IMG/VR virus record: IMGVR_UViG_2529292906_000010
Direction: 5' to 3' (one strand)
DNA from: a virus
Lineage: Duplodnaviria; Heunggongvirae; Uroviricota; Caudoviricetes
Length of the DNA: 47,757 bases
Positions 2,313 through 47,735 of this stretch are shown here, one piece after another. Position 1 is the stretch's first letter. Each line of letters starts with the position of its first letter. Both the position numbers and the translations under genes were made by a program. Below the pieces are notes generated by a model, which was not told where the DNA came from, did no database searches, and saw only the letters and a program-made list of their open reading frames with translations.

Positions 2313-2440
2313 ATGGAAACAAAAAGCCCGCAGATAAATCTGCGGGCTTCTTGCGACATCCACGGAAAACCAACAACTAACCATGGGCGCCTCGACAACT
2401 CCCATTATACGTTGGTTTTCCGTGGACGCAAGAGCGAACA
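2313..2440 (-). ncRNA. candidate antisense control RNA of repA (CopA-like), with minus-strand terminator at 2322-2350
   Basis: Hairpin AGCCCGCAG-N6-CTGCGGGCT followed by a T-run on the minus strand; 15-bp stem 2360-2374/2411-2425 immediately upstream of the RepA start. Confidence 0.35.
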
Positions 2441-2441
2441 T

Positions 2442-3290
2442 ATGGATAGACCAATGCCGTCTCTACGTTCAGCTTACGTTTGTAATTTGTCGCCGGAGTT
2501 CCAGCCTCCAAAGCACCATACGCACAAGCTGCCGCTGGTGTTATCTGATGCTTTACAGCGCATTAATGGGCGTGATCTTACGTGTGAGGTTGCGTTCTAC
2601 GTTAATCAACCGTCAGAGCGGAAGCGCCGGATAAACGAGCATCGTCGTCGGGCGATTAATGCTGTGATCGCTGCGATTTTGCACCATGTAAACATCATTT
2701 CTAAGCGGGTTCTGGCTAGTGCTGAGGCGTTGGCTGATTTTTGCGGCCTGTCTACCGTATCCGAAGCTGGGAACAAGTCTATAACGCGCTGTACAAGGGC
2801 GTTGTCGCAACTGAAAGCGTTAGGTTTTATTGATTATGAACGTCGCTGGGATCGGGTGAATAAACAGTATTGGCCAGCGAAAATAGAGATTCGTGATCAA
2901 CTGCTGGAAACCGTTGGTATTACTGAACAAGCATGGAGACGTGCGGTTAGCCAGAAACTTAATTACTTCAATGCGAAGAATAGCGAACGGCTTAAAAAAG
3001 CGATAACGGAGGCTGATTATAAGCGTATTGTTATTCAGGAGCAGATGGAGAATGTATGGCGCCAGAGGAAGACGGCCAGAGAGATAAAGGCAAAACAGAA
3101 AGCAGCGGAGAGAGCTGCGCGTCTTGTCCGGGAAAAGGGAGAGGCCGAACTTCGTCATCAAATCACTAGAGAGGTTAGCCAGGAATTTGCTGATGGCATG
3201 TATCCAGGTGCTGACCTTGCATATTTACGATCCCTCGTTGAGCAGCGTTATAACAGGCTAAGAAAGACCTGGAAATCACTCCAACATTAA
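2442..3290 (+). CDS. repA: plasmid replication initiator RepA (IncFII RepA1-like)
   Basis: Recalled similarity to R100/R1 RepA1 (SITRCTRALSQLKALGFIDYE vs SITRATRALTFLSELGLITYQ); in-frame ATG at 2313 is an alternative start but overlaps the antisense hairpins. Confidence 0.75.
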   Translation: MDRPMPSLRSAYVCNLSPEFQPPKHHTHKLPLVLSDALQRINGRDLTCEVAFYVNQPSERKRRINEHRRRAINAVIAAILHHVNIISKRVLASAEALADFCGLSTVSEAGNKSITRCTRALSQLKALGFIDYERRWDRVNKQYWPAKIEIRDQLLETVGITEQAWRRAVSQKLNYFNAKNSERLKKAITEADYKRIVIQEQMENVWRQRKTAREIKAKQKAAERAARLVREKGEAELRHQITREVSQEFADGMYPGADLAYLRSLVEQRYNRLRKTWKSLQH

Positions 3291-7086: not shown

Positions 7087-8229
7087 TTATGGTCTGCTTT
7101 TCTGTGCCAGCTTATCAGCACATGTTTTTATCAGATCCTGTAGTGTCCTGGCTGGCAGGTTTGCATCCAGTACGCTGAGTATGCTGTTGTGATCTGCTTG
7201 GTCGACTACTTTGCCTGTCGGTGGTAGTAGCTTGAGCTGAGGATTCAGGTTTTCGTCAAAACTGATAAGTGCTCTGGCGTTTCTGAGCAGATCAAGAAGT
7301 AAGGCTGATATCACATCATCTTTAGTCATTGTTGGTAGATTTAGTGCCGCTTTAGTTTTCTCCGTCGCCTTGTCAAACTCTTTGATTAGTGTCTTGCGGT
7401 AGTTTGGTTCCGTTAATAGCCGATGATGTTCTGTTGCCGTTCGGATAATCTTTGTTTCCTGATACAGTCGGTTGTATAGCATTCGCTCGTATTCTGCCTT
7501 TAACACGCTGCTGATAGCGTTAAAGGCTTCAATGTAGGCCAGCTTGATATCCTTCACGCCTGGACCGTCGATACTTTCCATGAGCAAGGTAAATCCGTCT
7601 TTTGTCATGCGATAGATTGTTATTTCGCGGTCGCTTCCTTCCAGCGGTCGTTGTTCTTTAAAGAAGTGACGCGCCGCAGCCGTGCGAGGAATGCGTAACG
7701 CATCGATGGCCATAACGATGGAATTGTTTGTGGTGCTGAATGCTTGGGCAACATCGGCTGAGGTTGTGAGTGGCTCGTTGTTGCACACCTTAACGTAATA
7801 CATTGGTTTAGCGTTGAGCGTATCGACAACCTCACGAGCATTGTTTGGTGAGACGGTTACGGTCGCGGCCGTTTGCGCGTTCTGGTTGAAGTAGCAGTCT
7901 TCCAGCCGTTCGAATACATCCCATGCCTGATCGGTTTCGAGCATTTTAGCGTGACGTGCAGCCCCGCGTTCGGTCCAGAGGATGAGCTTTCTAACGTTAT
8001 TCGCGATGGTTTGAAAATCTCTTAAAGAGATTTTCAAACTTTGGAGATCTGTACCTTTTACAACTATGAAATGTTTTCCTTCTGTAAACCGGGACTTATT
8101 ACGGTGGTGATTTCTGTGAAGACATTCGACGCTACAGCCATATAGTTTGGCAAGCAGCTCCGTGGTGATAACGGGGAGCTGCTTATGCAGGATAGGCTGT
8201 AGGGTGTTAACGGTCGGAAGCGTTTTCAT
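7087..8229 (-). CDS. phage antirepressor (ORF6N/Rha-like N-terminus)
   Basis: 380 aa; N-terminal region resembles ORF6N/Rha antirepressor domains as recalled. Confidence 0.65.
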   Translation of the reverse strand: MKTLPTVNTLQPILHKQLPVITTELLAKLYGCSVECLHRNHHRNKSRFTEGKHFIVVKGTDLQSLKISLRDFQTIANNVRKLILWTERGAARHAKMLETDQAWDVFERLEDCYFNQNAQTAATVTVSPNNAREVVDTLNAKPMYYVKVCNNEPLTTSADVAQAFSTTNNSIVMAIDALRIPRTAAARHFFKEQRPLEGSDREITIYRMTKDGFTLLMESIDGPGVKDIKLAYIEAFNAISSVLKAEYERMLYNRLYQETKIIRTATEHHRLLTEPNYRKTLIKEFDKATEKTKAALNLPTMTKDDVISALLLDLLRNARALISFDENLNPQLKLLPPTGKVVDQADHNSILSVLDANLPARTLQDLIKTCADKLAQKSRP

Positions 8230-8417: not shown

Positions 8418-8582
8418 TGTGATGATTCCCTTAAAGGTTAAGGATACTCACCACCGTCAGGTTCCAATCATTGGGTGGTGAGACGTGCAGGGTTGGAACT
8501 ACCGGACACAATGACGAACCGGCGAGTCTTACGACTCCCCCGCACGCCCCACCATAATTTGGGTGTAGCAGTGCTTTACGCA

Positions 8583-8690
8583 TAAAAAAACCGCTAACGC
8601 GGTATGCGCCATTGTGTCTACGGGGTTCCAATCCCGACCGTAGATTTTGCTACGGCTCGGAAAGTGTCCACCAATGGCGCATTCATGTCA
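8583..8690 (-). ncRNA. candidate structured small RNA upstream of antirepressor operon
   Basis: Minus-strand hairpins (GCGCCATTG/CAATGGCGC; TCTACGG/CCGTAGA) ending in CCGCGTTAGCGG + T7 terminator at 8583-8605; no ORF. Confidence 0.25.
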
Positions 8691-9173
8691 ATACGGCGGG
8701 ATTTTAACAGAGACAACCACATAGCGTGGGTTTATTGGTAGGCAGAAACAAAAAAACCGCCCTATTGAGGACGGTTCTTTCGTGCTGATCGGATTCGCGG
8801 TCCTTTCAGCATTACGTTGTTGTATAAACAACCACGCAAGCACAAGCAGCAAGTTAATTTTACCCAAAAGGTAATAATAGTCCACTATTATGCTTCAAAA
8901 AATTGTGGTTCTTGTTGTGCCTGCAAACTCACAGATTGTGGGTAGGTTACTGATTTTGTGAAAATAAACGAGTTTTTTCGTTTAATTTCTTTCCTATTAC
9001 TAATCTTAAAATAATCGTAAAATACCTGTGGACCTTCCCGCCGATTCGCACCCGGGCACCGACTTTAGGGGAGGATTCTCCGTTGCCGTACATGCAAGCA
9101 CAAGCAGCCGTGCTTGCTCTCGCGTTGTTTTCGTCGGTGGGGATGCCGTGAAACGGCCTGTAAGGGCCATACA

Positions 9174-9296
9174 ATGAAAAAATACTGTATGTGTATTTTT
9201 ATCGTTGTTACTGGAGCTTTGTTTACGCCACATGGGGAGGGTTGGAAGATTACTGATAACGCTCTGAATGTGACGATAAACATTAGCAGCAAGTAG
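9174..9296 (+). CDS. small hydrophobic protein (40 aa)
   Basis: MKKYCMCIFIVVTGALFT... with AAGGG RBS; followed by terminator at 9302-9325. Confidence 0.3.
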   Translation: MKKYCMCIFIVVTGALFTPHGEGWKITDNALNVTINISSK

Positions 9297-9301
9297 CGAT
9301 T

Positions 9302-9325
9302 AGGCCCCTTCGGGGGCCTTTTTTA
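9302..9325. terminator. hairpin terminator
   Basis: AGGCCCC-TTCG-GGGGCCT followed by TTTTTT. Confidence 0.6.
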
Positions 9326-9807: not shown

Positions 9808-9840
9808 TTATATAAATCTATAAAACTATAATTATATATT
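9808..9840. repeat. TATAATTATA palindrome site D (between parA and parG-like gene)
   Basis: Core at 9827-9836; reverse complement carries ATAGTTTTATAGATTTATATAA flank as in leader copies. Confidence 0.5.
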
Positions 9841-10507
9841 ACGCGGCAGTAGTCAGAGCCTCAAGCTGGTTGATAATCCCCTGAATAACGTCGTCTGCTT
9901 TTTTGCGTGGCGCAACGTATGAGCACTCAATGAGGCTTAAGCCCTTATCCTGAGCTTTGCTCAGAGCTGGCTTGTGGGGAATGTACTTATCGACAACAAA
10001 GTATGGCGTATTAGCCAGGTACTCTTGGGCTTCAATATAGTCAGCTTCGTTTTCAGCCGCGCCGGAAAACACCATGCAAATTTTCTTGATTGGTACACCC
10101 TTTTTAACGATGCCGTGAGCTGTGTTAACGGTGGTTTCCAGGTCATCGGTAGAGAATCTGGTTGGCAAAATAACCATATCCAGAAATTCAGAGAGCTTCG
10201 GTACTGATTCAGATGCGTAGGCACCGCCATCAACGATAACCAGGTCGTATACTTCTGATTCGATGATTTTCTGGACTTGTGATGGCGTGCCGCACGGCTG
10301 CGCCGCGATTGCAGGTTCGATATTGTTGGCCATTCTGCGTTGTACCCAACGCGTTACCGTTCCGTTAAGCACATCCATATCGATCAGGCATACATTCCAG
10401 CCAGCCTTTGCATAAGCAACTGCTAAAGCACGAGCAATGGTTGATTTGGTTACGCCGCCTTTTCCGTTGAAAATACCTACAGATATAGTCATTTGTCGAG
10501 ACTCCAT
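9839..10507 (-). CDS. parA: partition ATPase ParA (ParA/MinD family, small type Ib)
   Basis: 222 aa; deviant Walker A GKGGVTKST near N-terminus. Confidence 0.85.
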   Translation of the reverse strand: MESRQMTISVGIFNGKGGVTKSTIARALAVAYAKAGWNVCLIDMDVLNGTVTRWVQRRMANNIEPAIAAQPCGTPSQVQKIIESEVYDLVIVDGGAYASESVPKLSEFLDMVILPTRFSTDDLETTVNTAHGIVKKGVPIKKICMVFSGAAENEADYIEAQEYLANTPYFVVDKYIPHKPALSKAQDKGLSLIECSYVAPRKKADDVIQGIINQLEALTTAA

Positions 10508-21039: not shown

Positions 21040-21115
21040 GGCCCCTTAGCTTAGTGGTTAGAGCAGGCGACTCATAATCGCACGGTCATCGGTTCAAATC
21101 CGGTAGGGGCCACCA
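21040..21115 (+). tRNA. tRNA with CAU anticodon (Met or Ile2/lysidine type)
   Basis: 76-nt cloverleaf: acceptor GGCCCCT/AGGGGCC, anticodon loop CTCATAA, T-loop GGTTCAAATCC, 3' CCA; recalled as close to E. coli tRNA-Ile2. Confidence 0.8.
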
Positions 21116-28430: not shown

Positions 28431-30287
28431 ATGGGCGAAACAGTATGGAGCACCGCTTTTTTCCGTGCGCTTCGCCCTAAATCACGGCTAACTGTTTCCG
28501 AATGGGCTGATAAGTATCGTCATGTAGCGCCGGGAACGTCTCCAGAGCCAGGGCCGTGGCGTACAAGCCGAGTGCCATATTTGCGTGAACCAATGGATGT
28601 TATTGGTGACGCTGATACAGAAACAGTAGTGATGCAATGTAGCTCGCAAATTGGTAAATCCGAATTACAGCTAAATGTTATGGGTTACTTTGCAGATCAG
28701 GAGCCATCTCCTCAGTTGATGATTTATCCAACGGTAGAGGCGGCTGAGGCTTTTTCAAAGGAGCGTATTGATCCGACGTTCAAATATTCCCCTGGTTTGA
28801 AACACAAGCTGCATGAAGGAAAAGAGGGGCGCGGTGCAGCCAAAAAGTCCAGCACGACTATACGTATGAAGCATTACGCTGGTGGATATATAGCACTTGT
28901 TGGTGCTAATTCCCCAGCAGGTCTTGCATCCAGGCCAATTCGAATACTGTTAGCTGATGAGATTGATCGTTACGGTGTGACGCAGGAGGGCGACCCACTA
29001 AAACTAGGTATTCAGCGTACTACCAACTTTCATAATCGTAAGAAAGTTTTTGTTTCTACTCCTGTTTTTGAGGAAACGAGCAAAATCCACAAGTGGTTTA
29101 AGCTCTCCGATCAGCGTTACTACCATGTTCCTTGCCCATGTTGTGGCACCATGCAGGTGATGAAATGGTCGCAAGTCAGATGGGATAAGAGCGATTCAGG
29201 TGAGGCGTTACCGGAAACGGCCAGATATGAGTGCTGTGAGTGCGGCGGGATTATGCGCGGATCTGGTAAACCAGACGTTGATTGGTTGGCAAAGGGGGTA
29301 TGGATAGCTGAACATACTGGAGTTAAAGGTATTGTTGGTTTTCATATTAACAGTCTTTACTCCCCGTGGGTTGCATTGTCAGAGCTGGTTGAAGAATTTA
29401 CGGAAGCAACCAGAAACCGCGATAAAAATGGATTAATGGAGTTTATTAACCTTAAGCTGGGTGAGCCATGGAAAGAGGATGCTAAAGACGATATCGATCC
29501 TGAATACTTGTTGCAACGCAGAATAAGGTTTGAAGAGTTTTTACCAGATGATGTTTTATTGTTAAGTGCTGGTGTTGACGTACAGGACACGTATTTAGTT
29601 TGTGAATTGGTCGGTTGGGGAAAAGGTAAGGAGTCATGGGGGATAGAATATAAAATATTCCCAGGTGATCCCGCACAAGATGTTGTCTGGAAACAACTTG
29701 ATGAATACTTACTCCGTAGCTGGTCATTCCGTGACGGTCGAAAATTACAGATTTCTTCTGTTTGTATTGACTCTGGTGGGCATTTTACGACAGAGGTATA
29801 TCGCTTCACTAAGCTGAGAGAATCAAGGCGAATATACTCTATCAGGGGGCGTGGTGGGGTAGGTTTACCATTTATAGGAAAGCCAAGTAATAATAACCGT
29901 GTGGGTGCTATGTTGTTTAATTTGGGGGTTGATGATGGTAAAGGGACCATCATGGCAAGAATTAAACTACATGATCCTGGTCCTGGTTATATGCATTTCC
30001 CATTAGATTCTGACAGAGGATATGATACCGAATACTTTAAAGGATTATTATCAGAGAAAAAAATATTTGAATATAAAAATGGGCAGACAAAAGAAAAGTG
30101 GGTGAAAGTCTACGAGCGTAACGAGCCTCTTGATTGCCGTAACTATGCAACTGCCGCGATGGAAATTCTGAACCCTAATTTTAACTGGCTTGCCGAACAG
30201 GAAATGCGAGGTAATGTGTATGTGCAGAACTCGTCAGGTATACGTAGAAGACGCCGTAGAGTTATAAGTAAAGGCGTAAACATATAG
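28431..30287 (+). CDS. terminase large subunit (lambda gpA family)
   Basis: 618 aa; position and length typical of gpA-type terminase. Confidence 0.85.
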   Translation: MGETVWSTAFFRALRPKSRLTVSEWADKYRHVAPGTSPEPGPWRTSRVPYLREPMDVIGDADTETVVMQCSSQIGKSELQLNVMGYFADQEPSPQLMIYPTVEAAEAFSKERIDPTFKYSPGLKHKLHEGKEGRGAAKKSSTTIRMKHYAGGYIALVGANSPAGLASRPIRILLADEIDRYGVTQEGDPLKLGIQRTTNFHNRKKVFVSTPVFEETSKIHKWFKLSDQRYYHVPCPCCGTMQVMKWSQVRWDKSDSGEALPETARYECCECGGIMRGSGKPDVDWLAKGVWIAEHTGVKGIVGFHINSLYSPWVALSELVEEFTEATRNRDKNGLMEFINLKLGEPWKEDAKDDIDPEYLLQRRIRFEEFLPDDVLLLSAGVDVQDTYLVCELVGWGKGKESWGIEYKIFPGDPAQDVVWKQLDEYLLRSWSFRDGRKLQISSVCIDSGGHFTTEVYRFTKLRESRRIYSIRGRGGVGLPFIGKPSNNNRVGAMLFNLGVDDGKGTIMARIKLHDPGPGYMHFPLDSDRGYDTEYFKGLLSEKKIFEYKNGQTKEKWVKVYERNEPLDCRNYATAAMEILNPNFNWLAEQEMRGNVYVQNSSGIRRRRRRVISKGVNI

Positions 30288-30298
30288 AGGAAATATAA

Positions 30299-30538
30299 AT
30301 GAACAATGAAGCATTTTCTCTGACTGAAGCCAGAGAGATGTTATCTGTCTGGCGGGAAGCATATCGCGCTATTGCTATTGGCGGTCAGTCATATAAATTT
30401 GGTACGCGGCAGTTAACTCGTGCGGATTTATCAGAAGTCAGAAAAGAGATGGATTACTGGCGTAATGAAGTAGAAAGATTATCAGCAGGTATACGCCGAG
30501 GCCCACGAATTAAACGAGTGGTGATAAGAGATTTATGA
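30299..30538 (+). CDS. head-tail joining protein (lambda gpW-like)
   Basis: 79 aa between terminase and portal; RRGP motif near C-terminus. Confidence 0.65.
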   Translation: MNNEAFSLTEAREMLSVWREAYRAIAIGGQSYKFGTRQLTRADLSEVRKEMDYWRNEVERLSAGIRRGPRIKRVVIRDL

Positions 30539-32108
30539 ATATTCTTGATCGAGTTATTGCACCGTTTTCACCTCAGAGGGCATTAAATCGAGCTTTGGCA
30601 AGAAAACGGTTAGAAGCACTTGAAGGTATTAATAACCTTGGATATTCACGTCATGGTGCAAGCACTCATAAAAAATCATTAAGGGGTTGGTTTAGTAAAG
30701 CTGGTTCTCCTGATGAGGATATTGTTAAAAATATAGATAAATTGCGTGAGCGTTCTCGTGATCTCTTCATGGGAAACCCGCTATCGGTTGGCGCAATAAA
30801 AACTATCAGGACAAACGTTGTTGGTTCCGGTTTAAAACTAAATGCGAACATTGATGCCGATTTCTTGGGGATGACGCAGGAAGAAGCGCGAGCATGGGAA
30901 AAACATGTTGAGCGTGAGTTTAGATTATGGGCTGATTCTCCAAATTGTGATGCATCAAGAATGTGTACTTTTGGACAATTGCAATCATTGGTTCAAATAT
31001 CTGCGTTAACATCTGGCGATATATTTGCTGCGCTACCAGTTATTAAGCGTAATGGTGTTATATATGATTTGTGCGTCTATTTAATTGAAGGTGATCGTGT
31101 TTGCAATCCAGAGGATCGTTTTATACCAAATCTTTACGGTGGCGTAGAGGTTGGTGAATTTAGCGAGCCTGTGGCGTACTGGGTTGCAAAACATCACCCA
31201 GCCGGGACTTCTGGTTTTGTAACCCGCAAGTGGGAACGTATTCCCGCATATGGGAGTAAAACAGGAAGAAGAAATATTCTGCATGTCATGCAGGATTTTG
31301 AAAGGCCTGGGCAACGCCGTGGCGTTCCTGTCCTTGCTCCTGTAATTGAAGCATTGAAGCAGTTAGGACGATACACCGATGCTGAATTGGTTGCTGCGGT
31401 TGTGTCAGGGATGTTTACTGTCTTTATTAAAACAGACGCTCCTGATGGACCAGTCGGTGAATCGGGTATCCCTCAGTACGAGCAGATCGATAACCATGAT
31501 GATAACACCCAAGAAATGGGGAATGGCTCCATAGTAAGTTTGGGTGAAGGTGAGTCGATAGATACAGCAAATCCCGGGCGACCAAATACGGCATTTGATG
31601 GTTTTGTTGTCGCCATATGCCGTCAAATTGGGGCTGCTTTAGAACTCCCTTACGAACTCTTGGTAAAGCATTTTACAGCAAGTTATAGCGCAAGCAGGGC
31701 CGCATTACTTGAAGCCTGGAAAATGTTCCGTATGCGACGTGACTGGATGGTTCAGTCATTTTGCCAACCGATCTATGAGGAATGGTTGGCCGAAGCCGTT
31801 GCTAAAGGTCGTGTTATTGCCCCTGGTTTTTTTATGGGCCTGAATATCGCTCTGCATGGAGTGGCGCTCAATGGTATGGCCCATCACAAGGCCAATTAGA
31901 TCCCCTTAAAGAAGTCAAAGCTGCAAAACTGCGTGTTGAGGAAACATTCTCTACCCGTGAAAAGGAAGCGGCTGAAATGTCAGGTCTTAACTGGGAAGAA
32001 ACCGCACAAATCTGTGGCAGAGAAGAGAATGCTCGCCGTGAGTTGGGGCTTATTACACCTCCTGTTTCTGAGGTAAATGAACAAAATATGGAGACTGATG
32101 ATGCCTAA
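30535..32108 (+). CDS. portal protein (lambda gpB family); frame interrupted near 31888-31897
   Basis: 454-aa ORF ends at TAG 31897-31899; the -1 frame stays open from 31806 to TAA 32106-32108 and reaches the protease start. Confidence 0.7.
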
Positions 32109-35841: not shown

Positions 35842-36132
35842 ATGGCTAATAAGAAAAGTAGTAAAGAAGATATAGAAAAGAAGGAAGATGTTGCTCAAAC
35901 ATTTGTATATATAGGACCAACAATCCCTCAACTCTCAATTTTGAAGCATAAACTATTTAAGAATGGCTTATCTCCAGAGTGTAAAAAATTAATATCACAT
36001 ATTCCTGGTGCAAAGTGTTTGTTTGTGGCAACCAGTGATTTTGCAGATGCAGAGAAAAGACTTTCTGATAAAACCAGTGTCGAGTATGTAATGTACTCTA
36101 GAGTTTCTTCTTCTATCATGGAGATTAAATAA
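35842..36132 (+). CDS. hypothetical structural-module protein
   Basis: 96-aa ORF before sheath gene. Confidence 0.4.
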   Translation: MANKKSSKEDIEKKEDVAQTFVYIGPTIPQLSILKHKLFKNGLSPECKKLISHIPGAKCLFVATSDFADAEKRLSDKTSVEYVMYSRVSSSIMEIK

Positions 36133-37595
36133 TGGGATATCGCCACGGTATTTATATATCTGAACTGGCTACATCTATAACTCCTCCAGTGCAAGTTAGT
36201 GCTGGGTTGATTGTCGCATTTGGTACGGCTCCTGTTAATCAGTTAGAAGATCCAGCCTCAGCGGTAAATAAACCTATCATTGCTTATACATACGCAGAGG
36301 CCGTATCTAAAATAGGATATAGCACAAACTTCGAGAAATATACTTTAAGCGAAGTAATTAAAGTCGCATTTGGAATATATGGTGTTGCGCCAGTTGTATT
36401 TATCAATGTGCTTGATCCAGCAAAACATAAGAAAGACGTTACTGATGAGTTAGTAAAACTTTCTGGCGGGAAAGGTACGCTCTCTAACGATGGTGTCTTA
36501 TATAAATCTGTTGTTGTGAAAAAAGCAGATGGTGATTCGCCTGGGTTAACGCTTGATACCGATTATGTGCTGGCGCTGGATGATAATGGCTATACGGTCA
36601 TTACAGCTATTAGCGGAGGAAAAATTACCGAAAAAGACGCTACTCTTAAGGTTAGTTATACGCATCTTGATCCCGGTGCCGTAACTAAAAATGACATTAT
36701 CGGTGGTGTGGATTCCAACACTAAAGCCAATACAGGGCTTGAGTTACTGTCAGATGTGTATCCCCGCTTCAAGTTAGTTCCTGGACAAGTGATTGCACCT
36801 GGATTTAGTTCTGATAGTGAAGTTGGTCAGCTAATGGCGGCTAAAGCCGCGCTGATTAGTGAATTGTTCAAAGCTGAAGCTATAACGGATGCGCCGACCG
36901 ATAAATCTACTATCAGTGATTACTCGGCTGTTCCTGAATGGAAACAGAACAATAATCACATGGCCGCTAACCAGACAGTGTGCTGGCCGATGGTGAAACT
37001 TGGTGACAATATTTACCATCACTCAACCCATTTAGCGGCCGCAACATGCTTGCTGGATAGTCAGTATGGTGATATTCCATCACGTTCTCCGTCAAATATA
37101 AAACTACAGATGGACGGTGCTGTACGTAAAGATGGCAGTGAAGTATGGCTTAACATTAGTCAGGCAAACTACTTAAATGGACAGGGGATTGTAACAAGCC
37201 TTAATTTTGATGGTTGGAAATCATGGGGAAACCGTAATGCTATTTATCCAACATCTACAGACCCCAAAGACGCATTTCGTGTTTGCCGACGTATGTTTAA
37301 CTGGGTGGGTAATACGTTAATTCTTTCGCATTGGTCAAAAATAGACAATCCTGCAAACCGTCGATTAATTGAATCGATTGTTACAAGTGCGAATATTTGG
37401 CTTAACGGCCTCACAGGTAATCAGGATATTGCAGGTGGTGTTGTTACCTTTGATCAGTCTGAAAACACGATTACGTCATTAATGGACGGGATTGTTAAAT
37501 TCCATGTAAAAATGACACCATTCTCACCTGCCAGAGATATTGAGTTCGTCATGGAATATAATCCTGATTATCTGCTGAACTTGTTTTCTGAATAA
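36132..37595 (+). CDS. tail sheath protein
   Basis: 487 aa, followed by tube gene; typical contractile-tail order. Confidence 0.85.
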   Translation: MGYRHGIYISELATSITPPVQVSAGLIVAFGTAPVNQLEDPASAVNKPIIAYTYAEAVSKIGYSTNFEKYTLSEVIKVAFGIYGVAPVVFINVLDPAKHKKDVTDELVKLSGGKGTLSNDGVLYKSVVVKKADGDSPGLTLDTDYVLALDDNGYTVITAISGGKITEKDATLKVSYTHLDPGAVTKNDIIGGVDSNTKANTGLELLSDVYPRFKLVPGQVIAPGFSSDSEVGQLMAAKAALISELFKAEAITDAPTDKSTISDYSAVPEWKQNNNHMAANQTVCWPMVKLGDNIYHHSTHLAAATCLLDSQYGDIPSRSPSNIKLQMDGAVRKDGSEVWLNISQANYLNGQGIVTSLNFDGWKSWGNRNAIYPTSTDPKDAFRVCRRMFNWVGNTLILSHWSKIDNPANRRLIESIVTSANIWLNGLTGNQDIAGGVVTFDQSENTITSLMDGIVKFHVKMTPFSPARDIEFVMEYNPDYLLNLFSE

Positions 37596-37611: not shown

Positions 37612-38133
37612 TTGAGCAATCAAATTCCTGAGAGACTTATTAACTTTACAGTATACGGTGAGGGAAACCGTATTATCGGTGTTGCTGACGCAAAGCTGCC
37701 ATCAATTGAGATGATGACAGAAACTGTTAGTGGTGCAGGTATCGCTGGAGAGCTTGAGAGCGGAACGCTGGGGCATTTCAAACCAATGACTGTCTCTCTT
37801 AAATGGCGAACTCTGACCTCTGCTGGTACAAAATTATTTCTATCCTCATCGCATCAGGTAGATTTTCGCGGTAGCCAGCAGGTTTATGATGCAGGAACAG
37901 GAAAATATAAAACGGTTCCTATTCGGGCTTCAATGAAGCTAAATCCTAAAAAACTGGATTTAGGTTCGCTACAGGTGGCAAAGGCTACTGATTCAGAGAA
38001 TGAATTTGAAGTTCTCTATATCAAATTATTTATTGATGGGAAAGAAGTCCTGGAAATTGATAAGTTGAACTTTATTTGTATCTTTGATGGTGAAGATATA
38101 TTAAAAAGCGTTCGTGATGATTTAGGTTTATAA
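37612..38133 (+). CDS. tail tube protein
   Basis: 173 aa; TTG start with AGGAGG RBS. Confidence 0.7.
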   Translation: MSNQIPERLINFTVYGEGNRIIGVADAKLPSIEMMTETVSGAGIAGELESGTLGHFKPMTVSLKWRTLTSAGTKLFLSSSHQVDFRGSQQVYDAGTGKYKTVPIRASMKLNPKKLDLGSLQVAKATDSENEFEVLYIKLFIDGKEVLEIDKLNFICIFDGEDILKSVRDDLGL

Positions 38134-38142
38134 GGTGACAAA

Positions 38143-38424
38143 ATGGAAACCGTTAAATTAAGTAAAGAATATCGTTTTGAAGACTTTGAGCCGGTGACTG
38201 AACTCAACCTTGATTTAGACAACCTAAAAGGCAGTGATATTTTAGAGGTATCGGACTTACTGCAATCTCAAGGGCATGTTTCAGTTCAAACATCACTTGA
38301 TAATAAAGTCCATGCAGCCTTGGCTGCTCGCTGTATTGGTCGTCCAATAGAGTATCTGAATGGATTACCAGCGAAAGACTTTGTTAAAGTTTGTCAAAAG
38401 GTACAGAATTTTTTGCTCTCGTAG
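38143..38424 (+). CDS. tail assembly chaperone (P2 gpE-like)
   Basis: 93 aa upstream of tape measure; ends just after slippery TTTTTTG. Confidence 0.65.
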   Translation: METVKLSKEYRFEDFEPVTELNLDLDNLKGSDILEVSDLLQSQGHVSVQTSLDNKVHAALAARCIGRPIEYLNGLPAKDFVKVCQKVQNFLLS

Positions 38425-38573
38425 GTTTTGATGAGCAAAAACCTATTGATAAGCAAATAATGAGGGCCGCGAGTTCTCTATCTCAATCATCTCAATCAAC
38501 ACCTATATCCTACTGGCTTTCGCTTCGGTTGAGGCGAATCGTCGCATGGATTGACGTGTTTAATGAGGATTAA
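38143..38573 (+). CDS. tail assembly chaperone frameshift product (E+E'-like), via -1 shift at 38409-38415
   Basis: Heptamer T TTT TTG in frame; -1 frame continues FFALVGFDEQ... to 38573. Confidence 0.5.
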
Positions 38574-38578
38574 TACTA

Positions 38579-41370
38579 ATGGCCAGCAATAAGAACTTTA
38601 AGCTGGCTTTTGAAATTGGCGGCAAAGTTGCCGCCTCTCTCCCCAAAAGTTTTACTACAGCTAATCAGGCTGTTGCTAAATTAAATGCCGAGCTTGCTGG
38701 ATTAACGAAAGAACATGGGGAAATTCAAAAGCTACAATCTGTAAAAGTAAAGGTTGGACAGACTGCCCTCGAATATCATAAAGCTGCCGCTCGCGTTGAA
38801 GAGTTACAGAAGCAAATAAAAAACACGGCCAATCCAACCAGAGCGATGCTTCGTGACTTTGAGAAGGCAAAAACACATTCATCGAATTTACGAGCATCAC
38901 TACGTTCTCAGCGTGAAGAACTGGCCGCTTTAAAGTCTGCCTATCAGGGAGCTGATACATCTGCCAGAGCTTTGGCCTCAAGAGAGAAAGAGCTTAAAGC
39001 CAGCATTGATCGTAATCGTGAGGCTCAGGCCCGTAGCGTTGAGCAGGTTAACCGCTACAGAACGGCTTTGGCTTTAGCCAGAGCAAATGTTCAGCAAGTG
39101 AAAAACAGCAGGAGGAACTTAACCGGGCATTAGAAAAACAACGTATTGATAAAATTAACAGCTATAAAAATGCGTTGGCTGAAGCACGGAAAAATGTTCT
39201 TGCAGTAAAACGTGCTCAGGAGGAGTTAAACCGCGCGTTGGAAAGGCAGCGTGAATTGAAGCGAGAGCATCTTGGTGAGGCAAAGAGTCAACTTGTAAGG
39301 ACAGGATTACAAACTGGTGCTGTAGCGGCTGGTGCATTTGCTGCTGCTAATAATGCAGCAAATTTTAATCGTGAAAACAAAATGATTGGTCTTACGGCAG
39401 ATATGAAGCCGGAGGAAGTTCAGGCGATGGGGCAAGCGATGCTTGTTACCGGGGCGGCTACCAACCAGTTTGCATCTGATATTCAGGCCGCTCAGGGTTT
39501 TCTTGTCGCTGCTGGGCAGGATTATAAAGAGGCTCAGGCGAATCTACTAACTATTGGGCGAACAGCTACAGCTACTGGCTCTGATATCCTCGATGTCTCG
39601 AAAGCATCATTTACATTAAGTGACTCATTGAAGATTGATCCATCTCAAATGAAGTCTGCAATGGGGATTCTGGTTCAGGCAGGGAAAGAGGGAAACTTTG
39701 AATTTAAAGATATGGCCAAAAATCTTCCTGTGCTTGGTGCTCAGTTCCAGGCATTAAAAATGGGAGGTAAAGAAGCCGCCGCGACGATGGGGGCAGCTTT
39801 GCAGATAGCTCGCAAAGGTGCTGCAACTTCGGATGAGGCTGCTAATAATATGAACAACTTTTTGGCGAAAATACTTTCCCCTGAAACACTAAAAAAAGCA
39901 AAGAAAAATTTCGGTGTAGATTTATATAAAATTGTCACAGCAGCGCAGAAAAAAGGGAAGAATCCATTCGAAGCTGCAATGCATTCTGTCATGAAAATGA
40001 CTAAGAACGGAGATCAGAAGTTACTTGGTGAGCTATTTGGCGATATGCAGGTTCAGAACTTTGTTCGTCCGATGATTCAAAACTGGAAGGAATACCAGAG
40101 AATCAAAGCAACATCTCTTGGAGCTGGAAGTGCTGTTATTGACCGCGATTTTGCCAACATAACGAAAGATAATGCGGAGCGATTGAAACAATTACGTATT
40201 CAGGCTAGCAATGCATCATTAAGTTTTGGTCAGGCCTTGCAACCTGCTTTAAATGCCGCGCTTAGTGTTTTGGTTCCGCTGATTACAAAAATCAGTGAAT
40301 TTGTAGCTAACAACCCCAATTTTGTTTCTCAGATTGTGATGGCGGCAGGTGCGTTTCTAACCATGAAAAGTGTGGTTATAGCGTGTAGGGTAGCTATGCT
40401 GGCTTTATCTGTAGCGACAAAGCTAACCCCTTTCGGGTGGATTCAGATGGCCATATCAGCCATTGTGGCGTTAGGTATATTGTTGTATCAGAATTGGGAT
40501 AAAATAAAAGAATGTGCATCAAAAGTTTGGCCTGCTATTAAGGATTACACTGTTAAGTCTTTTGAGACTATAAAAAACTTTATCTTAAACTTTGATCTCA
40601 ATGGATGGATTATATCTATGTTTGGTAAAGCATGGTATTATCTTTCCAACATAAACTGGAGTTCGGCAGGAGTAAGAATTTACAGTGCATTAATTAGTGC
40701 TTTTAAATGGATGTCTCCGCTTCCGTTCTTAATTAAAGCATTTAAACTTACAACAAATTACCTTTCTGGCATTAACTGGAGCGAAACAGGAAAGAAAATC
40801 ATAGATACACTGGTGTCTGTTTTTATGCGTTTTTCGCCAGTTGGACTATTTATAAGAGCATTCCAATCTGTAACGGCTTATTTATCTGGAATAAACTGGA
40901 GTGAGTCAGGTGCAAAAATAATTGAGACGTTAATCACTGGGATAAAATCAAAAGCAAATGCTTTAATTAATGAAGTGAAAGGCGTTTTTTCTTCTGTACG
41001 TGAGTATTTACCGTTCTCTGACGCGAAAAAAGGTCCATTCTCACAGCTAACAAAGTCAGGTGGTGCAATAATGACTACTCTGGCATCAGGTGTTAGCAGG
41101 AATAACAGCTTACAGAATGCAATAGCAACCAAGTTCGGGCAATCAAATTTATCACCTCACGGGATATCTGCCGCCGGGACTTCTGGACCTCGCCAGAACG
41201 TTAACGCTGTGACTGGTGGAATAACCTATTCACCTGTAATCAATCTTCCGGCTGGTTCACCAAAGGAAACTGAGGCGGCAGCTAAAAGAGCATTAGATGC
41301 GGGATATTCTGATTTTGAGAAGAAATTGAGTGCTCATATGTTCCAACAACGGAGATTAAGTTTTGGATGA
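38579..41370 (+). CDS. tail tape measure protein; frame interrupted in A5 run at 39101-39105
   Basis: Coiled-coil N-terminus continues across the apparent stop at 39131 in the -1 frame; C-terminal TM and GINWSE repeats. Confidence 0.8.
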
Positions 41371-45701: not shown

Positions 45702-47735
45702 GTGAGTAAATTATTATTTACGATGACTGACGCCGGGCGTCAGGAGTTGGTTAATGCCAACAAAACAGGAACAAATAAAGTTGAGATTGTTTCTGTTGGT
45801 TTAGGTGGTAGATATTATGTCACGTCAACCTCACAAACAAATATAACAAACGAAATAAAACGACTTACCACAATAGGTGGCAAAGTTGTTTCCCCTGATA
45901 CAATTCATGTAACGGCGAAGGATGATAGTAAAGATGAGTATGTTGTCCATACAATAGGATTGTATACAAATAAGGGAACGTTGTTTGCTGTATACTCGCA
46001 AGAACAAGCAATAATAAATAAAGCATCATCTACTATTGCTTTAATATCAAGTGACATAGCAATCAAGACTCTTGATACTAAAAATATTATATTTGGTGAT
46101 GTTGAGTTTATTAATCCTCCCGCGACCGAAACTGTTGTTGGGGTTGCAAGATTTGCTAATGAACAAGAAATTGATGCAGGTACAGATGATTCCCTTGCTG
46201 TTTCAGCAAAGCGGCTTAAGCAAGCCATTGTGAAACATGAGCAATCACGTAATCATCCTGATGCAACTTTAACCTCAAAAGGCTTTGTTCAACTTAGCAG
46301 CGCCACCAATAGCACGTCTGAAACGCTTGCTGCGACGCCTAAGGCTGTTAAGGCAGCATATGACCTGGCTAACGCTAAATACACCGCACAGGACGCTACC
46401 ACTGCGCGGAAAGGGATAGTTCAGCTCAGTAGCGCCACCAACAGCACGTCTGAAACGCTTGCGGCAACGCCAAAGGCTGTTAAGGCGGCATATGACCTGG
46501 CTAATGGCAAATACACCGCACAGGACGCTACCACTGCGCGGAAAGGGATAGTTCAGCTCAGTAGCGCCACCAACAGCACATCTGAAACGCTGGCTGCGAC
46601 GCCAAAAGCTGTTAAGGCGGTAATGGATGAAACGAACAAGAAAGCGCCCTTAAACAGTCCTGCGCTGACCGGAACGCCAACAACGCCAACTGCGCCAAAA
46701 GGGACTAATAATACTCAGATCGCAAGCACGGCTTATGTGATGGCCGCGATTGCCGCACTTGTAGACTCGTCGCCTGACGCACTGAATACGTTGAACGAGT
46801 TAGCGGCGGCGCTGGGAAACGACCCGAATTTTGCGACCACCATGACTAAAGCGCTTGCGGGTAAGCAACCGAAAGATGCCACTCTGACGGCGCTGGCCGG
46901 GCTTGCTACTGCGGCAGACAAGTTTCCGTATTTTACGGGGAATGATGTCGCCAGCCTGGCAACCCTGACAAAAGTCGGGCGGGATATTCTTGCGAAATCG
47001 ACCGTTGCCGCTGTTATCGAATACCTCGGTTTACGAGAACTCGGCACAAGCGGGGAAAAAATACCGTTACTCAGTACGGCGAATACCTGGACCAATCGAC
47101 AAACATTCAGTGGTGGCCTTTCTGGGGAACTGTCCGGCAATGCCGCTACTGCAACAAAGCTGAAAACAGCACGAAAAATTGCTGGAGTTGGTTTTGATGG
47201 TTCTAGCGATATTTCAATTAGTGCCAAAAATGTCAATGCATTTGCACTCCGACAAACAGGTAATACTGTTAATGGTGATACATCCGTTGGATGGAATTGG
47301 GATAGTGGTGCATATAACGCCATAATTGGTGGTGCAACTGCATTAATTCTTCACTTTAATATAAATGCTGGTAGCTGTCCTGCCGTACAATTCCGTGTGA
47401 ATTATAAAAATGGTGGCATTTCCTACAGGTCGGCTCGTGATGGTTATGGGTTTGAATTAGGTTGGTCAGATTTCTATACCACGACACGAAAACCTTCAGC
47501 AGGAGATGTTGGTGCATATACACAGGCAGAATGTAACTCAAGGTTTATTACAGGTATTCGCCTTGGCGGTCTGTCATCTGTTCAGACATGGAATGGTCCC
47601 GGCTGGTCTGACAGGTCAGGTTATGTCGTTACGGGTTCAGTTAACGGGAACCGTGATGAATTAATTGATACAACGCAGGCAAGGCCAATTCAGTATTGCA
47701 TTAATGGAAGGTGGTATAACGCGGGGAGTATTTAA
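45702..47735 (+). CDS. tail fibre protein (constant N-terminal part plus invertible C-terminal cassette from ~47040)
   Basis: 677 aa; three tandem ~44-aa fibre repeats; C-terminal 232 aa identical to the inverted cassette 791-1486. Confidence 0.9.
   Translation: MSKLLFTMTDAGRQELVNANKTGTNKVEIVSVGLGGRYYVTSTSQTNITNEIKRLTTIGGKVVSPDTIHVTAKDDSKDEYVVHTIGLYTNKGTLFAVYSQEQAIINKASSTIALISSDIAIKTLDTKNIIFGDVEFINPPATETVVGVARFANEQEIDAGTDDSLAVSAKRLKQAIVKHEQSRNHPDATLTSKGFVQLSSATNSTSETLAATPKAVKAAYDLANAKYTAQDATTARKGIVQLSSATNSTSETLAATPKAVKAAYDLANGKYTAQDATTARKGIVQLSSATNSTSETLAATPKAVKAVMDETNKKAPLNSPALTGTPTTPTAPKGTNNTQIASTAYVMAAIAALVDSSPDALNTLNELAAALGNDPNFATTMTKALAGKQPKDATLTALAGLATAADKFPYFTGNDVASLATLTKVGRDILAKSTVAAVIEYLGLRELGTSGEKIPLLSTANTWTNRQTFSGGLSGELSGNAATATKLKTARKIAGVGFDGSSDISISAKNVNAFALRQTGNTVNGDTSVGWNWDSGAYNAIIGGATALILHFNINAGSCPAVQFRVNYKNGGISYRSARDGYGFELGWSDFYTTTRKPSAGDVGAYTQAECNSRFITGIRLGGLSSVQTWNGPGWSDRSGYVVTGSVNGNRDELIDTTQARPIQYCINGRWYNAGSI
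46281..46620 (+). repeat. tandem 132-bp repeats within tail fibre gene (~2.6 copies)
   Basis: GGGATAGTTCAGCTCAGTAGCGCCACCAACAGCAC... recurs at 46413 and 46545. Confidence 0.7.
47014..47039. other. DNA invertase crossover site (gix/hix-like) inside tail fibre gene
   Basis: Reverse complement TTCTCGTAAACCGAGGTATTCGATAA; inverted-repeat identity with 769-1500 begins at 47026. Confidence 0.6.

Follow-up and report, generated by a model that had tools for sequence, protein, structure and literature searches.

Does this phage-plasmid's gene for the tail assembly chaperone give rise to one protein or to two, the second being read through a shift into the −1 frame shortly before the stop codon? The window, i.e. 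the whole stretch of 47,757 nucleotides analysed here, is a phage-plasmid of about 48 kb that is near-identical to plasmid pATCC25922_4 and to the Yersinia phages vB_YpM_39, vB_YpM_41 and vB_YpM_44. Among 5426 complete E. coli genomes, 71 contain the element, at 78 places in total, and the reference strain ATCC 25922 is one of them; in each case it was found on a plasmid and never in the chromosome. It combines a lambda-type terminase and portal with a contractile tail of the P2/Mu type. The landmarks outside the tail region are as follows.

2313-3290: IncFII-type RepA
9839-10507: ParA
28431-30287: lambda-type large terminase
30535-31899: lambda-type portal

Our analysis makes it very probable that a programmed −1 ribosomal frameshift produces a short and a long tail chaperone from one start codon. 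The features on which this reading is based lie within the tail gene cluster.

36132-37595, + strand: tail sheath gene, 487 aa (phrog_23, E 8.6e-96)
37612-38133, + strand: tail tube gene, 173 aa (PF04985 Phage_tube (FII), E 3.5e-44, 151 bits)
38143-38424, + strand: tail assembly chaperone, 0-frame product, putative gpE/gpG analogue, 93 aa, 10.4 kDa (ORF, PF10109)
38409-38415, + strand: putative slippery heptamer T TTT TTG (sequence, phasing, retention in relatives)
38415-38573, + strand: predicted −1 extension, E′/T-like domain, 52 codons plus TAA (translation, phrog_30074 match, conservation)
38422-38445, + strand: candidate hairpin of 8 bp with an 8-nt loop, 6-nt spacer after the heptamer (MFE structure)
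38579-41370, + strand: tape-measure gene, presumed binding partner of the chaperone (PF10145, phrog_28)

The chaperone ORF is preceded by the sequence AAGGTGA 6 nt upstream of its ATG. It lies directly 3′ of the tube gene, and the tape-measure gene is the next gene downstream, followed by genes for a gpX-like LysM protein, a gpD-like hub and a gpV-like spike. The sheath gene opens the block of sheath, tube, chaperone and tape-measure genes, and its product is named 'phage tail sheath family protein' by RefSeq in pATCC25922_4. The match of the 93-aa ORF to PF10109 (Phage_TAC_7) is marginal. It covers profile positions 1-78 of 79 and reaches 25.4 bits (E 1.5e-5), with a gathering cut-off of 25 bits for the whole-protein score; the 143-aa fusion scores 23.7 bits, which is below this cut-off. 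All 16 of the 16 aligned relatives match the same family, on which P2 gpE, scored separately, reaches 47.8 bits. By these profile matches, the 93-aa ORF is a PF10109 tail assembly chaperone of the P2 gpE/Mu gp41 family. Residues 1-137 of the conceptual fusion align to PHROG 3140, 'tail assembly chaperone', as one continuous segment that spans the junction (E 2.4e-47), and the extension matches phrog_30074 with residues 89-143 (E 2.9e-33). Among solved structures no match was found at E ≤ 1. An AlphaFold2 model built with homologues of the N domain only reached a pLDDT of 58.5, with values below 50 in the extension, and is too poor for claims on partner binding.

The heptamer TTTTTTG is read directly on the + strand at 38409-38415, embedded in CAG AAT TTT TTG CTC TCG TAG G when written in the 0-frame codons of the ORF. 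As the 0-frame codons are AAT TTT TTG, the heptamer has the phase X XXY YYZ, i.e. T TTT TTG, in agreement with the coordinates and phasing given in the first-pass annotation. The same annotation placed the heptamer seven codons before the chaperone stop. This distance has to be corrected, as only two sense codons, CTC and TCG, separate TTG from TAG, and the 0-frame protein of 93 aa ends in ...KVQNFLLS*. Upstream of the heptamer, the −1 frame is closed by many stops. From 38415 to 38570 it is open for 52 sense codons that translate as ALVGFDEQKPIDKQIMRAASSLSQSSQSTPISYWLSLRLRRIVAWIDVFNED, and TAA follows at 38571-38573; the 53 codons to 38573 counted previously thus hold true if the stop codon is included. 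The location of the end just ahead of the tape-measure gene was also given correctly, the TAA being completed 5 nt before the ATG at 38579.

How much of this would be expected by chance? The window contains 19 copies of TTTTTTG, compared with 22.2 ± 4.8 expected from shuffles. Since the heptamer is not enriched, the motif is unusable as evidence by itself. For 7% of the codon positions within ORFs of 80 aa or longer, the −1 frame runs through 52 or more codons before a stop. In-frame X XXY YYZ heptamers no more than 10 codons from the stop are found only four times in these ORFs, including the site under study. Two of the other three have −1 extensions of 1 and 6 codons, and the third is a TTTTTTT at 1538. 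The latter was rejected as a frameshift site, as its ORF looks non-coding and merely reads into the serine recombinase gene at 1577-2131. Separately, we noted an in-frame T TTT TTT at 31827-31833, 21 codons before the stop of the portal gene (30535-31899), with a −1 frame open for 91 codons to about 200 nt past the stop; because 7% of positions have long −1 frames, this arrangement is probably due to chance. A heptamer and a long −1 frame are each common, and therefore the case rests on context and conservation. The site is unremarkable on the window alone, and it is its position and its conservation in relatives that, at the level of sequence comparison, put it above chance.

The relatives available for comparison fall into three ranges of similarity. 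Near-identical copies (95-100%) comprise the three Yersinia phages, the Escherichia phages vB_EcoM-613R2 and vB_EcoM-473R2, IMG/VR and metagenome contigs, and E. coli plasmids. Sequences from Hafnia, Klebsiella, Citrobacter, Salmonella, Enterobacter and Symbiopectobacterium share 69-77% protein identity, and Vibrio phages X29, PVP-XSN and R20L, Faecalibacterium phage Epona, Paenibacillus phage Lily and a Cloacibacillus MAG share 36-45%. A profile search of genome contigs with a narrow alignment added two distant loci, of which that from Cloacibacillus was useful and the other (L015) was discarded as unrelated; a search of metagenome contigs returned mostly near-identical copies. TTTTTTG is present near the stop in 34 fetched relatives, P2 included, down to 36% protein identity, and Epona has TTTTTTC. 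The distance from heptamer to stop is two codons in 32 relatives, three in the Cloacibacillus MAG and six in P2. In every relative whose sequence reaches that far, the −1 frame continues for 52-60 codons, and its stop lies at the start of the tape-measure gene or just ahead of it; one short contig (L022) breaks off after 4 codons of the extension. Of the two residues at the slip site, the protein alignment shows F90 to be invariant and L91 almost so. Within the extension, G95, P101, A109, L113, T120 and W125 are invariant from E. coli to Vibrio, and a motif TP-I-S-Y-W-L-S-L is kept among the relatives. By eye only, the extensions of Lily, Epona, Cloacibacillus and P2 share a pattern ...P-x-x-[YFW]-[WFL]-x-[ML]-x-L....

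The distribution of nucleotide substitutions over codon positions is consistent with this protein-level conservation. Counted as pairwise differences per codon position between seven enterobacterial lineages, the values for positions 1/2/3 were 0.18/0.09/0.49 in the 60 codons before the heptamer read in the 0 frame, 0.25/0.21/0.46 in extension codons 1-15 and 0.19/0.09/0.37 in extension codons 16-52, both read in the −1 frame. Over nine lineages, the whole extension gave 0.24/0.14/0.46 in the −1 frame. The substitution peak at the wobble position switches from the 0 to the −1 frame exactly at the heptamer. As the third-position bias is already seen in codons 1-15, selection on the −1 protein begins at the slip site and not at a later start codon. 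The anatomy of the site, the family of the N domain, the conservation of the heptamer and of its position, and the protein-level selection on the −1 extension can thus be taken directly from the sequences.

The last result bears on the suggestion that the −1 ORF is a small independent gene with its own start, TTG at 38391 or ATG at 38460, and that the heptamer is incidental. The program-made ORF list does contain an ORF from 38391 to 38573 that opens with TTG, in two Vibrio phage records the extension is entered as a CDS of its own starting from TTG, and an ATG at extension codon 16 is present in enterobacterial relatives and is the start from which one 37-aa library protein was called. A start common to the family does not exist, however. 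TTG or GTG six codons before the heptamer is found only in some enterobacterial sequences, and in 7 of 16 lineages (L017, X29, PVP-XSN, Lily, Epona, Cloacibacillus and P2) the stretch from the upstream −1 stop to the heptamer lacks any start codon. Within 16 nt upstream of the candidate starts, the codon-16 ATG included, there is no SD sequence. Moreover, extension codons 1-15, which precede this ATG, show the third-position-biased substitutions together with the invariant residues G95 and P101, and the members of PHROG 3140 are colinear with the fusion. A separate gene is therefore highly improbable. It is barely credible that the arrangement reflects chance or a sequencing error in the T run that splits what is truly a single ORF of 143 codons. 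The count of the heptamer at expectation and the long −1 frames at 7% of positions would agree with chance, and the window does contain at least one homopolymer discrepancy, as the tape-measure gene has a run of A5 that is A6 in 20 relatives. Yet T6 followed by G is identical across independent phage isolates, plasmid assemblies, metagenomes and distant genera, and the two-frame arrangement is kept at 36-77% protein identity, over which neither chance nor error could persist.

Another route to the same fusion would be transcriptional slippage, in which RNA polymerase stutters on the T6 run and adds an extra U to some mRNAs, bringing the extension in frame. The T6 run is the invariant part of the signal, a conserved downstream RNA stimulator was not found, and a single inserted U should yield an identical downstream frame. 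Runs of only six are weak slippage substrates, which counts against polymerase stuttering. In addition, the codon phase X XXY YYZ is conserved, which a tandem tRNA slip needs and the polymerase does not, and so is the base that follows the T run (G in 34 relatives, C in a single one). Conserved phase and conserved following base, as seen in the alignment, favour the ribosomal over the transcriptional route. Although transcriptional slippage is a documented way to such products (PMC5009743), the identical heptamer of P2 is recorded as a translational frameshift both in the P2 record and in PMC3091744. Taken together, slippage of the polymerase appears quite improbable.

Under the preferred reading, a programmed −1 ribosomal frameshift, ribosomes translating the 93-aa chaperone gene (38143-38424) would arrive at T TTT TTG, where a minority would slip back by one base. 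In a tandem slip, the P-site tRNA-Phe would re-pair from TTT to TTT and the A-site tRNA-Leu from TTG to TTT. The slipped ribosomes would bypass the TAG two codons further on and read 52 more codons in the −1 frame to 38573. The abundant product would be the 93-aa protein of 10.4 kDa, analogous to gpE or gpG, and the rarer one a protein of 143 aa and 16.2 kDa, analogous to gpE+E′ or gpGT, with the N-terminus common to both. The predicted junction is ...VQNFL|ALVGF..., giving the junction peptide VQNFLALVGFDEQKPIDK in the case of the tandem slip; if the P-site tRNA slipped with an empty A site, the peptide would be VQNFFALVGFDEQKPIDK (the ...NFF... variant). If the two proteins act like lambda G/GT and P2 E/E+E′, their common N domain would coat the tape-measure protein encoded just 3′, the extension would bring in the tail tube protein for polymerisation of the tube to the measured length, and both proteins would be expected to be absent from the finished virion. 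From sequence and analogy we infer the ribosomal nature of the slip, its efficiency, the residue at the junction and the protein partners.

Downstream of the heptamer, the minimum free energy structure contains a candidate hairpin with the 5′ arm UAGGUUUU at 38422-38429, which includes the 0-frame TAG, the loop GAUGAGCA and the 3′ arm AAAACCUA at 38438-38445. Downstream stimulators of frameshifting are hairpins or pseudoknots located 5-9 nt after the heptamer. Over 92 nt, the MFE z-score is −2.24. The pairing is possible in 76% of the cells of 11 enterobacterial relatives, compared with 70% for shuffled sequences and no more than 59% when the partners are slid. Pair 18-36 swaps between GC and UA among these 11 sequences. 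This support is modest and biased, as the structure was derived from the window sequence itself and conserved Gly and Pro codons dictate its G-C core. It is further weakened by RNAalifold, which returned no consensus stem downstream and paired the U run only with upstream purines. The hairpin is not kept in the Vibrio phages, Lily, Epona or P2, and nothing notable was seen in Lily, Epona, Cloacibacillus and P2. The Vibrio phages have a different 10-bp hairpin, GYUGCCGAUC ... GAUCGGCAGC, that begins 18 nt after TTTTTTG (2788-2822 in L002, 1773-1807 in L010 and L011) and is, with z-scores of −3.0 to −5.9, much stronger than that of the window. A stimulatory role of the hairpin at 38422-38445 is unproven. 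We regard it as unlikely that frameshifting in the enterobacterial phage-plasmids is tuned by this clade-specific hairpin together with the strict two-codon distance to TAG-G. If it were, the Vibrio relatives would have evolved a different, stronger hairpin at +18, and interchangeable, lineage-specific stimulators would set the ratio of short to long chaperone.

The phenomenon itself is textbook knowledge, and our results change nothing in the understanding of frameshifting or tail assembly. What is new is its presence, unannotated, in a widespread phage-plasmid lineage. In RefSeq/PGAP and GenBank records, the 154 nt between chaperone and tape-measure genes carry no feature at all (3326-3479 in L040, NZ_CP117232; 3283-3436 in L001 and L003), and among 1.84 billion representatives in protein libraries the extension is represented by a single fragment of 37 aa. 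A joined CDS would supply the records of this element with a tail assembly protein that is probably essential, and the main value of the finding lies in annotation.

In the window, the tape-measure gene is split into two ORFs, 38579-39133 and 39175-41370, whereas relatives have a single CDS of 2793 nt. The difference goes back to a run of A5 at 39101-39105 that is A6 in 20 of 20 fetched relatives, and it is due either to an error in sequencing the homopolymer or to a genuine deletion that inactivates the gene. If the deletion is genuine, this copy of the element is unable to make tails regardless of frameshifting, and its frameshift site is a relic. In another assembly of ATCC 25922 (NZ_CP037450, L041), the sheath gene is marked 'frameshifted' and the tape-measure gene is distributed over four hypothetical ORFs; given these broken genes, homopolymer errors are common in public copies of the element.

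Several further observations concern the element as a whole. Rfam matches above the gathering score, at 8471-8559 (−), 8584-8656 (−) and 9028-9324 (+), comprise C4 antisense RNA (P1/P7-type immunity), isrK and ryfA, and adjoin a Rha/ORF6N antirepressor-like gene at 7087-8229 (−). A tRNA-Met (CAT) gene is located at 21040-21115 (+). The serine recombinase at 1577-2131, which is Hin/Gin/Cin-like, adjoins small ORFs in opposite orientation at 255-788 and 791-1129 (−). The translation of the latter resembles, by eye, the C-terminus of a tail fibre, and a tail-fibre gene with PF03406 repeats is found at the other end of the window (45702-47735). For the regions 255-2131 and 45702-47735, this arrangement suggests an invertible segment that determines host range, like Mu G or P1 C.

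How does the site compare with known systems? The first-pass annotation had assigned it to the E/E′ or G/GT type of arrangement. This assignment is supported by the PF10109 match, the position between tube and tape-measure genes, the alignment to PHROG 3140, the conservation in relatives, the gpGT annotation in phage X29 and the heptamer of P2. Mu gp41 shares the PF10109 name, the location between the tube (M) and tape-measure (gp42) genes and a similar order of downstream baseplate genes. Unlike the ORF of the window, it is 144 aa long and has no TTTTTTG near its end, so that its recoding signal, if any, must be different and Mu was ruled out as a model for the signal.

In lambda, G and GT both bind the tape measure, GT through its G part, and the T part binds the major tail protein; both proteins are made from one start in a fixed ratio, and neither is found in the virion. 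Production of the two proteins in vivo in a fixed ratio, the requirement of both for tail assembly and their absence from virions are known for lambda and P2 only (PMC5009743, PMC3091744). The lambda findings are taken from PMC5009743, which summarises Levin, Hendrix & Casjens 1993 and Xu et al. 2013 and 2014 and also states that frameshift efficiency in P2-like phages is two to three times that of lambda. The logic of a chaperone and a −1 extended chaperone and the position of the gene are the same here as in lambda, the function being assigned by analogy only. In contrast, the slippery sequence of lambda is G GGA AAG, its tail is non-contractile, and its protein has no detectable sequence similarity to that of the window.

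P2 is closer in its signal. According to PMC3091744, which cites Christie et al. 2002 and Xu, Hendrix & Duda 2004, P2 makes an E protein of 91 aa and an E+E′ protein of 142 aa at TTTTTTG, with no downstream structure reported there. In the P2 record, this heptamer is marked as an experimentally defined −1 translational frameshift site leading to the essential E+E′. The comparison with the slippery sequence of P2 E/E′ recommended in the first-pass annotation revealed an identical T TTT TTG in the same phase. The N domain is PF10109 in both cases, the site lies between an FII-type tube gene (PF04985) and the tape-measure gene of a contractile tail, the extension ends at the start of the tape-measure gene, and the product sizes are 91/142 aa in P2 and 93/143 aa in the window. 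The two differ in that P2 has GGT TTT TTG followed by six sense codons and TGA, compared with two sense codons here, in the gene order of the window (tape measure, X-like, D-like, V, W, J) with its lambda-type terminase and portal, and in the possible small hairpin 6 nt downstream, where PMC3091744 describes none for P2. Neither the 52-aa extension nor the X29 fusion matched PF06528 (Phage_P2_GpE) at E ≤ 10, a profile to which P2 E+E′ scores 76.3 bits. The fusion and P2 E+E′ were compared by BLASTP (E 4.6) and hhalign (probability 0.4%), neither of which is significant; the hhalign alignment lines up the F-L slip site and the W motif. Homology between the extension and P2 E′ is thus not demonstrated, and a distant relationship is possible on the sequence pattern.

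The nearest annotated example is Vibrio phage X29 (NC_024369, SBVcX29_0050/0049). It differs in being a Vibrio phage with a linear genome and not an element borne on an E. coli plasmid, and in its strong 10-bp hairpin 18 nt after the heptamer, compared with the weak one of the window at +7. Nevertheless, X29 encodes a true homologue, 44% identical in the chaperone. In X29, too, AAT TTT TTG stands two codons before TAG, the extension has 57 codons and the TP-I-P-Y-W motif, and a joined CDS labelled 'lambda gpGT analog' is annotated at this TTTTTTG. Over all relatives compared, the PF10109 family retains the P2-type TTTTTTG signal in Proteobacteria, Firmicutes and Synergistota alike.
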